Shown one piece after another: positions 2,955-4,840 of a DNA stretch of 64,000 bases (its first letter is position 1; the number at the start of each line of letters is the position of its first letter). The position numbers and the translations under genes are program-made. The notes below the pieces were generated by a model. It worked only from the letters and a program-made list of their open reading frames with translations. It was not told the origin of the DNA and ran no database searches. Source of the DNA: Escherichia phage vB_EcoM-CHD16UKE1; sequence record MZ234030.1; one strand, written 5' to 3'.

Positions 2955-3983
2955 ATGTCATCAATACCTTGGATTGATAATGAGTTTGCGTATCGTGCAT
3001 TAGCTCATTTACCTAAATTCACACAAGTAAATAATAGTTCAACTTTTAAATTGCGGTTTAGATGCCCTGTTTGTGGAGATTCAAAAACCGACCAGAATAA
3101 AGCTCGTGGATGGTATTATGGTGATAATAATGAAGGAAATATTCATTGTTATAACTGTAACTATCATGCACCAATCGGAATATATCTAAAGGAGTTTGAA
3201 CCTGATTTATATCGTGAGTATATCTTTGAAATAAGAAAAGAAAAAGGTAAAAGTCGTCCAGTAGAAAAACCTAAAGAACTTCCTAAACAACCTGAGAAGA
3301 AAATAATTAAATCTCTTCCGTCATGCGTTAGATTAGATAAACTGGTGGAAGACCATCCAATTATAAAATACGTAAAAGCTCGTTGTATTCCAAAGGATAA
3401 ATGGAAATATCTTTGGTTTACAACTGAATGGCCTAAATTAGTTAATAGCATAGCACCGGGAACATACAAAAAGGAAATTTCTGAGCCTCGTCTTGTTATT
3501 CCAATTTATAATGCTAATGGAAAAGCTGAGTCTTTTCAAGGACGTGCATTAAAGAAAGATGCTCCTCAAAAATATATCACCATTAAAGCTTATCCTGAGG
3601 CAACAAAAATATATGGAGTCGAACGAGTTAAAGATGGCGATGTATATGTTCTAGAAGGACCTATAGATTCACTTTTTATTGAAAATGGTATAGCTATTAC
3701 GGGTGGTCAATTAGACCTAGAAGTTGTTCCATTTAAAGATAGACGAGTGTGGGTTTTAGATAATGAACCTCGTCACCCTGACACTATCAAGCGAATGACT
3801 AAATTAGTTGATGCAGGAGAAAGGGTTATGTTTTGGGATAAATCTCCCTGGAAATCAAAAGATGTTAATGATATGATTAGAAAGGAAGGTGCAACCCCTG
3901 AACAAATTATGGAATATATGAAAAATAATATTGCCCAGGGGTTGATGGCTAAAATGCGGTTATCTAAATATGCCAAGATTTAA
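2955..3983 (+). CDS. 61: DNA primase gp61
   Basis: 342 aa; zinc-ribbon CPVCGDS...HCYNCNYH; TOPRIM-like core; recalled as T4 gp61. Confidence 0.93.
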   Translation: MSSIPWIDNEFAYRALAHLPKFTQVNNSSTFKLRFRCPVCGDSKTDQNKARGWYYGDNNEGNIHCYNCNYHAPIGIYLKEFEPDLYREYIFEIRKEKGKSRPVEKPKELPKQPEKKIIKSLPSCVRLDKLVEDHPIIKYVKARCIPKDKWKYLWFTTEWPKLVNSIAPGTYKKEISEPRLVIPIYNANGKAESFQGRALKKDAPQKYITIKAYPEATKIYGVERVKDGDVYVLEGPIDSLFIENGIAITGGQLDLEVVPFKDRRVWVLDNEPRHPDTIKRMTKLVDAGERVMFWDKSPWKSKDVNDMIRKEGATPEQIMEYMKNNIAQGLMAKMRLSKYAKI

Positions 3984-4180
3984 ATTAACCCAACTAAAGC
4001 AAATGCTAGATCTACGAATGTATCAAGAGTAACTACTGGAATATTAATACCATGTGCAATTGCAATGGGTGATAAAATAAAGTTCCAGAGTAAAATTCCT
4101 ACCATAGCAGAAATAGTAAAAGCTATACGTTTTTTATTACCTTTTATGGCATCAACAAGTGCCATTAATTTTTGTGCCAT
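3980..4180 (-). CDS. Hypothetical small membrane protein (two predicted TM helices), antisense to the surrounding early genes
   Basis: 66-aa ORF with strong RBS AAGGAGG about 6 nt upstream of ATG; stop overlaps gene 61 stop tail-to-tail. Confidence 0.45.
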   Translation of the reverse strand: MAQKLMALVDAIKGNKKRIAFTISAMVGILLWNFILSPIAIAHGINIPVVTLDTFVDLAFALVGLI

Positions 4181-4224
4181 GTGTCCTCCTTTAAATTAAT
4201 ATTTATCACAAATTTCATAAATTT

Positions 4225-4254
4225 GTTTACTTTCTCAGCTTGTTATGGTATTAT
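4225..4254 (+). promoter_or_regulatory. T4-type early promoter (-35 GTTTAC, -10 TATTAT)
   Basis: GTTTAC at 4225-4230, about 18-bp spacer, extended -10 TGGTATTAT; upstream of the 4280 ORF. Confidence 0.55.
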
Positions 4255-4279
4255 AAAATAAATTGCTGAGGATGATATA

Positions 4280-4840
4280 ATGATTAATAAAATTGTACAT
4301 GAAATGGCTTTAAACGGAGATTCATATAAAATATCTGCCGTAGTTGAAAATTTCATACTTAATAAAGTAAAAGAATATTTCACTGATTGTTCAGTTAGTT
4401 ATCAAGAAAAAATGGTTTTAACCGATGATACTGAAAAATCAAATAATTTGTTTTGTTCTAATTTTATAACTAAGAAGCGTACTAGAAGATTTGATATTGT
4501 TATTTCTCGCAACGGTAAAAAGCATATAATTGAAATTAAACACCAAGTTGGTGGAGGTACAGCTATTGATTCGGTTGGAATATATTTAGAAGATAAAGAG
4601 AAATTAAAAGAATACACAAAAACTGAAAACCCTGTGTCATTGATGATATTAGATTTTTTGCCATGCGGATATTATCCACGTAATAAATGGACAAAAAGAG
4701 AATCATTTACTGATAATCCAACCATCCAAGCAAGGTTTAATGAATATGCTAAATCACAAAACGTGTTAGTATTACTATCAAATACATATGATGAAGAATT
4801 ATATAATTCGTTTTTTGCTGCAATAAATGAGAGAATATAA
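4280..4840 (+). CDS. Hypothetical protein with PD-(D/E)xK-like nuclease motif, translationally coupled to dam
   Basis: 186 aa; D72...E85-I-K87 ([17 protein letters not shown]) after a basic stretch KKRTRR; stop overlaps dam ATG; own early promoter and RBS GAGGATGA. Confidence 0.6.

Follow-up and report, generated by a model that had tools for sequence, protein, structure and literature searches.

Organization of the gene 61-dam region

The window analysed here, a 64,000-nucleotide stretch of the genome of the T2-like Escherichia phage vB_EcoM-CHD16UKE1 (MZ234030.1), carries between the primase gene and dam a 186-codon ORF, orf186, the product of which is called 'hypothetical' in all 150+ database records (Table 1). 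An earlier note, written from the sequence alone, had placed this ORF between genes 61 and dam with its stop codon overlapping the dam ATG, and its coordinates were reproduced, base 4840 being common to the orf186 stop and the dam start (TAATG). The downstream product matches PF02086 over residues 7-239 (E 6.5e-51) and contains the DPPY motif (VDPPY in the translation), while the gene is 97% identical to T4 dam at the nucleotide level and is annotated as Dam in related records. Alignment with RB14 showed that the promoter, orf186 and dam form a variable cassette that is missing from dam-less Tequatroviruses such as RB14. GATC is under-represented (observed/expected 0.39), but CTAG just as much (0.38), which makes the GATC value uninformative.

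That orf186 has an early promoter of its own, as the same note had claimed, was found both by a consensus scan and in the annotation of MZ726795, a 99.6% identical record in which a T4 early promoter is marked at this site with one mismatch; the promoter falls within the segment that is deleted in T4. The terminator-like hairpin lies upstream of it and, judging from the sequence, sets the primase transcript apart from the orf186-dam unit. On the opposite strand, the 66-codon orf66 has AAGGAGG 4 nt ahead of its ATG and ends tail-to-tail on gene 61, as noted previously, but only one of the two transmembrane helices then ascribed to it is clear by hydropathy (about residues 19-41), the C-terminal segment being borderline.

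Table 1. Features of the gene 61-dam region, numbered from the first base of the window
Feature	Position	Strand	Remarks
Gene 61	2955-3983	+	DNA primase; left flank of cassette
orf66	3980-4180	-	Small membrane protein gene; phrog_2024; overlaps gene 61 stop tail-to-tail
Terminator-like hairpin and T run after gene 61	4146-4175 (hairpin 4146-4165)	+	Annotated terminator in MZ726795
Variable cassette (promoter, orf186, dam)	~4192-5621	+	Alignment with RB14
Late-promoter-like GATAAATA	4200-4207	-	7/8 of TATAAATA; upstream of orf66
Left copy of 8-bp direct repeat ATCACAAA	4205-4212	+	Bounds 548 bp missing in T4
T4-type early promoter of orf186-dam operon	4225-4254	+	GTTTAC-N14-ATGGTATTAT; consensus scan
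Shine-Dalgarno GAGGA of orf186	4268-4272	+	
orf186	4280-4840	+	186 aa; predicted PD-(D/E)XK endonuclease (R component)
Candidate catalytic residue E23 of orf186		+	
Candidate catalytic residue D72 of orf186	4493-4495	+	
Candidate catalytic residue E85 of orf186	4532-4534	+	
Candidate catalytic residue K87 of orf186	4538-4540	+	
Loop G93-TAIDS98 of orf186			Invariant; candidate DNA-contact loop
Right copy of 8-bp direct repeat ATCACAAA	4753-4760	+	Downstream to 4840, orf186 part kept in T4
T6 homopolymer near orf186 3' end	4811-4816	+	Slippage hot spot
dam	4840-5619	+	D12-class N6-adenine DNA methyltransferase (M component); ATG overlaps orf186 stop

A predicted nuclease with the fold of Type IIP restriction enzymes

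The PD-(D/E)xK-like signature (D72, E85 and K87) and the basic stretch KKRTRR that the earlier note had picked out are all present in the orf186 product, and the three signature residues are invariant across its relatives down to 32% identity, together with E23, R69, H88, Q89 and G93-S98. Structure prediction by AF2 (pLDDT 81.7, pTM 0.79) then gave a PD-(D/E)XK fold, the model having the α-β-β-β-α-β core, in which strand 2 bears the D and strand 3 the (D/E)xK. D72 lies on one strand of a hairpin and E85/K87 on the other, where they would face each other if the hairpin register is regular. The whole product is modelled as a single 186-aa domain, with no extra modification-reading domain. Its top structural matches are orthodox Type IIP restriction enzymes of the EcoRI/MunI-like class, MutH and Sau3AI being absent from among them, and a Foldseek search of a viral library returned only the MX01 orthologue and unnamed nuclease-like proteins. 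On this model, the predicted product of orf186 is a small PD-(D/E)XK endonuclease that belongs, by structure, with the EcoRI/MunI-like Type IIP enzymes.

The likeness to these enzymes is one of fold, in which the model comes closest to MunI/EcoRI, with no detectable sequence kinship; moreover, they read AATT-centred sites and have other methylase partners, whereas orf186 is paired with Dam. Kinship with EcoRI, to which ExKHQ and GxAI[D/E] seemed to lead, was rejected when hhalign against the verified EcoRI sequence gave a probability of 0.1%. The EcoRI recognition motif GNAxER is not found in the orf186 family, and the G-T-A-I-D-S at a roughly matching place is a resemblance only.

Sequence searches lead, if anywhere, towards DpnII. 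Independent sub-threshold matches fell on the catalytic core of DpnII (PF04556) in four of eight family members, with 16.8 bits for the window protein and 22.5 for the best relative (P0009) against a cut-off of 23, the match covering only profile positions ~143-235 of 278 (~85/278 positions). PADLOC REase_II matched orf186 with an E-value of 9e-5, and hhalign aligned the orf186 family with DpnII over 34 columns spanning RFDxVI...IEx (E 3e-4, probability 38%), using a DpnII alignment whose seed sequence shares 99% identity with a PF04556 protein in the database, the available relatives being mutually too similar for a deep profile. No profile match to orf186 reached a curated threshold. Distant kinship with DpnII is possible on the sequence, at a level that falls short of the gathering threshold for PF04556 membership. 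Neither phmmer nor the family profile found a match to orf186 among all PDB sequences even at E 10, NCBIfam yielded noise only, and no GIY-YIG or HNH domain was matched in Pfam. A profile search run exhaustively over 1.8 billion representatives produced 12 matches, each of them either a fragment from a T4-like phage or a spurious repeat protein, and no bacterial relative usable for function transfer; the family is tiny and confined to T4-like phages. A full-text literature search found no account of orf186 or of any T-even restriction enzyme.

Strict linkage to a Dam-type methylase

In seven of seven lineages examined (35-64% identity), the orf186 homologue lies directly upstream of a D12 (Dam-type) methylase gene, which it abuts or overlaps, and the identities of the two products fall together (64, 63, 57, 43, 35 and 37% for the nuclease versus 76, 71, 72, 63, 56 and 53% for the methylase). 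The pair occupies three different genome sites: 61|56, denB|ndd and a position upstream of rIIA. Among ~505 Tequatrovirus records, which are related, so that the counts are to be read as a pattern and not as a statistic, 147 have both genes, 33 the methylase only, none the nuclease only and about 325 neither. As in type II restriction-modification systems, the nuclease gene adjoins and is co-inherited with a methyltransferase gene, and it is never kept without the methylase while orphan methylases do occur. The orf186-dam pair is best read as a mobile restriction-modification-type cassette of virulent hmC phages.

T4 dam as an orphan of the cassette

The earlier note had taken T4 to have no gene between 61 and dam and had regarded the locus as an insertion relative to T4. 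The comparison with T4 contradicts the former and reverses the latter: T4 has an intact, unannotated orf66 and retains upstream of dam a 28-codon (~85-bp) 3' relic of orf186, residues 159-186 still being found by tblastn in T4-type phages. From the alignment, T4 is a deletion derivative that lost 548 bp between two 8-bp direct repeats, and its dam is an orphan of the cassette; the orphan state is secondary, as the relic and the repeat-bounded deletion show.

Loss has taken other forms as well. Slippage at the T6 tract alters the orf186 C-terminus and uncouples its stop from the dam ATG, as in T2 (-1, 181 aa, ending ...NSFLLQ) and ES19 (183 aa, ending ...SFFCCNK), all T2 records bearing the frameshifted 181-aa allele. 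At least four independent routes of nuclease gene decay with dam retained were counted. The idea that the T2 frameshift is older than the T4 deletion was dropped, T4-type relics occurring with both T-tract lengths.

Proposed function and its alternatives

We hold, with slightly better than even confidence, that the orf186 nuclease and a protective Dam make up a two-gene restriction-modification-type cassette of virulent T-even phages, directed against competing unmethylated DNA. One early promoter would transcribe both genes, and the end of orf186 would be translationally coupled to dam. The nuclease would cut at or near GATC with an unmethylated adenine, a specificity that we infer in view of its methylase partner and a weak similarity to DpnII. 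Phage DNA, methylated in the previous cycle and re-methylated by Dam, would be spared, as would the DNA of a Dam+ host, and the likely targets would be unmethylated DNA in the same cell, namely that of co-infecting phages, including the dam-less Tequatroviruses (~two-thirds). The cassette would be mobile and partly selfish, its nuclease gene decaying readily while the methylase stays on as an orphan. Of what the earlier note had offered by way of interpretation, the methylation-linked, restriction-like module is favoured by the Type IIP-like fold, the invariant residues, the adjacency to Dam and the lack of any nuclease without methylase; the pairing with the membrane ORF that it also considered did not hold up (see below).

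Known systems provide partial parallels. In DpnII/MboI-type systems, which are GATC-specific with an m6A-blocked nuclease, a PD-(D/E)XK-type nuclease likewise adjoins a Dam-family D12 methylase, and there is local resemblance about the catalytic strands (KRFDFVI...LIEVN in DpnII, RRFDIVI...IIEIK in orf186). Unlike DpnII (~288 aa), however, orf186 is 186 aa long, precedes its methylase in overlapping frames, resides in a virulent hmC phage rather than a bacterium and has a predicted specificity. Chloroviruses encode restriction-modification systems, e.g. R.CviAI/M.CviAI at GATC, the enzymes of which degrade unmethylated host DNA. They resemble the orf186-dam phages in being lytic viruses with a nuclease and a protecting adenine methylase, but the usual hosts of the latter are Dam+ and not the obvious target, and the proteins, as far as tested, belong to unrelated families. 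E. coli Dam and T4 Dam are orphans, yet the window dam, for all its identity to that of T4, has a nuclease partner. The seg and mob homing genes of T4 are similarly patchy in distribution, lying between conserved genes at several sites (segF in this very region of T4), but they encode GIY-YIG or HNH enzymes, whereas orf186 has a PD-(D/E)XK fold and an obligatory methylase partner. Finally, Mom-REase fusions of jumbo phages, predicted to attack host DNA or that of superinfecting phages (Iyer et al. 2021, PMC7824862), also combine phage-borne DNA modification with a restriction-fold nuclease (PMC7824862), but orf186 and dam are separate genes of T-even phages and involve methylation, not momylation.

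Besides the want of an above-threshold profile match and of sequence kinship with EcoRI or any solved structure, several points weigh against a restriction-modification role. The usual hosts are Dam+, so that their DNA would be no target. Glucosylated hmC makes T-even DNA resistant to most Type II enzymes, and if the orf186 enzyme is no exception, Dam would be needless for self-protection. The nuclease gene lies upstream of the methylase gene and is early, a reversal of the delayed-nuclease logic of many bacterial systems. The frequent decay of orf186 implies weak or conditional selection. T2 dam mutants are viable, and we know of no report of restriction activity in decades of work on T2, although this is tempered by the frameshifted allele that all T2 records carry.

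A bolder version, which we think unlikely, is that T-even phages use restriction as a weapon against one another, the orf186 enzyme having evolved the ability to cut GATC also where the DNA is hydroxymethylated or glucosylated, with Dam as the immunity gene. Relatives without dam would then be destroyed or gene-converted on co-infection with a cassette phage, in a genome-wide form of marker exclusion, lineages like that of T4 would have kept the immunity half only, and the presence of Dam in hypermodified phages whose hosts already have one, a puzzle of long standing, would be explained.

Quite improbable, in our estimation, is a Dam-tied role other than restriction, for example as a MutH- or Vsr-like strand-discriminating nickase in repair or recombination or as a DNA-binding protein that, without being catalytic, partners or regulates Dam. 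That the metal-binding and catalytic triad is conserved throughout favours catalysis, MutH and Sau3AI are outside the top structural matches, and loss of the nuclease with retention of the methylase, never the reverse, is what would be predicted for a harmful activity in need of neutralization.

It is very doubtful that the enzyme acts like DpnI, cutting Dam-methylated cytosine DNA (that of the host, that of plasmids or DNA that the phage Dam has over-methylated), with Dam making or completing the target and glucosyl-hmC phage DNA being resistant. The weak affinities point to the methylation-blocked DpnII and not to DpnI, the single domain has no modification-reading module, and T-even DNA is itself Dam-methylated, which would leave its protection to hmC alone. 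In addition, the cytosine-specific EndoII and EndoIV, which act on host DNA, already serve T-even phages in this capacity.

We give still less credence to another option of the earlier note, here taken as a free-standing PD-(D/E)XK homing endonuclease that cuts a long site in relatives lacking the cassette and drives its own spread, with dam as hitch-hiking cargo. A methylase is of no use to a homing enzyme, so the strict dependence on Dam would go unexplained; the pair co-diverges from ~64/76% to ~35/55% identity with overlapping frames in every lineage; the nuclease is never found alone; and orthodox Type IIP enzymes head its list of fold matches, with no Pfam match to the GIY-YIG or HNH domains typical of T4 Seg and Mob.

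As for orf66, it is a real gene of the conserved phage backbone and lies outside the cassette, being found in all ~505 Tequatrovirus records, including RB14, with 63-66-aa orthologues in divergent phages, and it is probably expressed late, to judge from the promoter-like octamer upstream of it, of which MX01 and L006 have a perfect version (TATAAATA) at the matching place. That orf186 and orf66 form a toxin-antitoxin-like or exclusion pair, as the earlier note had suggested and as their proximity and divergent promoters might invite one to think, is hardly tenable, with orf186 in only 147 of these records, orf66 present in RB14 without orf186 or dam and intact in T4, a late-type promoter of its own, and no orf66-like neighbour annotated where the cassette occurs in Jiaodavirus or linked to rIIA.

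Implications for T-even phage biology

The Dam enzymes of T4 and T2 have been model methyltransferases for decades, but to our knowledge their benefit to these phages has been unclear, since glucosyl-hmC already protects the DNA and the hosts have a Dam of their own. Viewing dam as one half of a conserved nuclease-methylase cassette, and the T4 copy as an orphan left by deletion, provides phage Dam with an origin and a purpose that are concrete and can be tested. The annotation is thereby also corrected for over 150 phage genomes and for the T4 reference, in which the conserved 66-aa gene is not annotated. If the nuclease is active, orf186-dam would be among the few complete restriction-modification systems that we know of in strictly virulent phages, its enzyme would represent a very small, previously unrecognized family, possibly acting on hypermodified DNA, and rival phages would be a likelier target than the host.

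Organization of the locus

Sequence identity of the region is 100% to Escherichia phage vB_EcoM-PM123 and 96-99% to many T2-like Tequatroviruses; its genes run in the order sp, 61.2-like, 61.1, gene 61, orf66, orf186, dam and gene 56. The 186-aa ORF, the overlap of its stop with the dam ATG, the early promoter and the opposite-strand orf66 were all found where the earlier note had placed them. A GAGGA motif lies 7 nt 5' of the orf186 ATG and, since a hairpin followed by a T run separates gene 61 from the early promoter, orf186 and dam look, from these signals, like a separate early transcription unit. 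Downstream, the spacers preceding gene 56 in the window and in RB14, a dam-less Tequatrovirus, have in common a TTGCTT...TATAAT middle-promoter-like arrangement, so that the cassette lies upstream of this promoter and leaves it undisturbed. Directly 3' of gene 56 is a 66-aa basic ORF (phrog_5782, labelled virion structural protein), an arrangement also found in RB14 (RB14ncORF029c); T4 has the homing endonuclease gene segF at this position. In the whole window, 81 GATC sites are present where base composition predicts 207 (0.39), a depletion equal to that of CTAG (0.38) and stronger than that of TCGA (0.49).

Coordinates of the features discussed
Feature	Sequence	Position	Remark
gene 61 (primase)	window	2955-3983	
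orf66	window	3980-4180 (-)	
orf66	L002, a further orf66 locus	1497-1700 (-)	
Hairpin + T run	window	4146-4175	
orf66 late-promoter box	window	4200-4207	GATAAATA
8-bp direct repeat	window	4205-4212, 4753-4760	ATCACAAA
Early promoter	window	4225-4254	GTTTAC-N14-ATGGTATTAT; fits T4 early-promoter consensus; so annotated in a 99.6%-identical genome
orf186	window	4280-4840 (+)	ends in TAATG
T6 tract	window	4811-4816	
dam	window	4840-5619 (+)	start codon shares base 4840 with orf186 end
dam-56 spacer	window	5620-5680	
66-aa basic ORF	window	6198-6398	
orf66-56 spacer	RB14	1709-1768	
Nuclease-Dam pair	KPV15	1872-3229	
Nuclease-Dam pair	Shinkou	1173-2524	
Nuclease-Dam pair and rIIA	distant T4-like metagenomic contig	141-3844	

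A predicted PD-(D/E)XK nuclease

No match above threshold was found for orf186 in curated libraries. The top match of the window protein is Pfam DpnII (PF04556), at a sub-threshold E of 0.0045, and DpnII also ranks first for three relatives (best 22.5 bits vs a cut-off of 23), always at profile positions ~143-235, which correspond to the catalytic core; the generic Type II restriction-enzyme model of PADLOC gives E 9e-5, and PHROGs assigns the protein to phrog_8706, function unknown. These weak, sub-threshold sequence matches are mutually consistent. The PD-(D/E)xK fold originally proposed from a short signature is borne out by a confident AlphaFold2 model built with eight family members (pLDDT 81.7, pTM 0.79), whose elements follow the order helix 15-33, strand 38-48, hairpin 66-77/80-88, helix 106-113 and strand 119-124. 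Among the invariant catalytic residues, D72 lies on the first of the paired hairpin strands and E85-I-K87 on the second, which would place D72 opposite E85/K87 in a PD-(D/E)XK arrangement if the register of the hairpin is regular. The most conserved stretch C-terminal to the catalytic strand, G93-T-A-I-D-S98, lies where model confidence is lowest (pLDDT 49 over block 91-100), as would be typical of a loop ordering on DNA. Kinship with DpnII is possible, and is graded so because profile-profile comparison, which aligned RRFDIVI...IIEIKHQ..GGG with KRFDFVI...LIEVNFYSGSG, returned a probability of only 38%.

A mobile pair with an obligatory Dam partner

The family is very small: word-indexed searching of 5.8 billion proteins turned up 10 relatives, and exhaustive profile searching across 1.8 billion representatives gave 12 matches, all of the latter T4-like phage fragments or members except two spurious repeat proteins. 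In every lineage with readable context (the window, MX01 (Dhakavirus), two metagenomic T4-like contigs, the Klebsiella Jiaodaviruses KPV15 and Shinkou, and the two most distant members, of 225 and 227 aa), a D12-class (Dam) methylase gene lies directly 3', the junction being TAATG, TAAATG or a 7-35-nt overlap. The two proteins diverge in parallel at the sequence level (nuclease identities of 64, 63, 57, 43, 35 and 37% vs 76, 71, 72, 63, 56 and 53% for the methylase). Three different sites harbour the pair (61|56, denB|ndd and just upstream of rIIA), which makes it a mobile two-gene unit rather than a fixture of one locus. In KPV15 and Shinkou, the pair (43% identity for the nuclease and 63% for Dam) lies between denB-like and ndd-like genes rather than at 61|56. 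The third insertion site, in a distant T4-like metagenomic contig, is directly 5' of rIIA (phrog_612, E 9e-157), and the pair there consists of a 227-aa nuclease with a longer N-terminus and a 264-aa Dam.

One-way decay and the origin of T4 dam

The absence of any T4 gene between 61 and dam, as stated in the earlier note, holds for the T4 annotation but not for the T4 sequence, which contains an intact orf66 and, directly after it, the final ~85 bp of orf186, continuing into the dam ATG. Residues 159-186 survive in T4-type phages at 96-100% identity; the 548 bp missing from T4, early promoter included, are bounded in the window by an 8-bp direct repeat. The sequence shows the T2-type arrangement to be ancestral, T4 to be a deletion derivative and its dam to be a secondary orphan.

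Among ~505 Tequatrovirus records with common flanking sequence, which are phylogenetically related and hence count as non-independent trials, dam is present in 180 and the part of orf186 absent from T4 in 147, with both genes in 147, dam alone in 33, orf186 alone in none and neither in ~325 (e.g. RB14). The orf186-dam junction is contiguous in 146 of the 147 and also in KarlGJung, at 79% coverage. Strengthening this asymmetry, the nuclease gene has decayed repeatedly and independently with dam kept: by the T4-type deletion, by a different 5' deletion in KarlGJung, by a 1-nt frameshift in G29 and by +/-1 slippage in the T6 tract (181 aa in T2 and 183 aa in ES19, vs 186 aa in the window). This tract, near the 3' end of orf186, is one nucleotide shorter in T2 and the T4 relic and apparently one longer in ES19, each change swapping the last 7-8 residues and shifting the stop off the dam ATG. 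This may alter translational coupling, and the tract could serve as a simple switch for on/off or coupling control. One-way decay is to be expected where the first product does harm unless the second is present, and the second is useful or harmless by itself.

orf66 is an unrelated backbone gene

The suggestion that the membrane-protein ORF forms an exclusion or toxin-like pair with orf186 was rejected, since essentially every Tequatrovirus record contains orf66, whether or not dam is present. A real backbone gene, orf66 is unrelated to the cassette and has AAGGAGG 4 nt 5' of its ATG and a tail-to-tail overlap with the primase stop. It is intact in T4 (MVQKLMALVNAIKGNKKR..., NC_000866.4, between dam and gene 61), although absent from the reference annotation. 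Divergent T4-like phages, Dhakavirus and metagenomic contigs included, have orthologues of 63-66 aa in the same tail-to-tail arrangement, with the conserved core LWN...P.A...GI.LP.VT. A T4 late-promoter box lies 12-14 nt 5' of the ribosome-binding site; MX01 and a metagenomic contig have its perfect form (TATAAATA), and expression is probably late. Of the two membrane helices first proposed, hydropathy supports one clearly (~19-41), the C-terminal segment being borderline. All database names for this protein (phrog_2024) are 'hypothetical'.

A restriction-like interpretation

Taken with the predicted fold, the invariant catalytic residues and the Dam linkage, one-way decay favours the restriction-like, methylation-linked reading among those put forward in the earlier note, the activity itself being predicted. 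The orf186 product would be an active endonuclease blocked by Dam methylation, with GATC as the most likely site. The main rivals are a nuclease that depends on methylation, a homing-type enzyme carrying Dam along as cargo, and a non-restriction nickase or partner of Dam. Each, although a viable reading, accounts for the whole pattern less simply than restriction does. For a restriction-like enzyme, plausible targets are DNAs in the same cell that lack methylation, co-infecting phages foremost, since the usual hosts methylate GATC and injected phage DNA is already methylated. Such an enzyme might be directed at unrelated phages or, with Dam serving as the immunity gene, at T-even relatives that lack dam; the ability to cut hmC or glucosyl-hmC DNA would decide between the two.

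Virus-encoded restriction-modification is known in chloroviruses. Predictions for jumbo phages include restriction-fold nucleases linked to DNA modification (PMC7824862). This kind of system is thus already known, and what appear to be new are the family to which the enzyme belongs, the fact that T-even phages carry it and the way in which T4 dam arose; no function for the protein is given in ~150 GenBank records, UniRef, PHROGs or NCBIfam, and full-text searches of the literature turned up no account of it. The old question of the purpose of T-even Dam can now be reduced to simple experiments.
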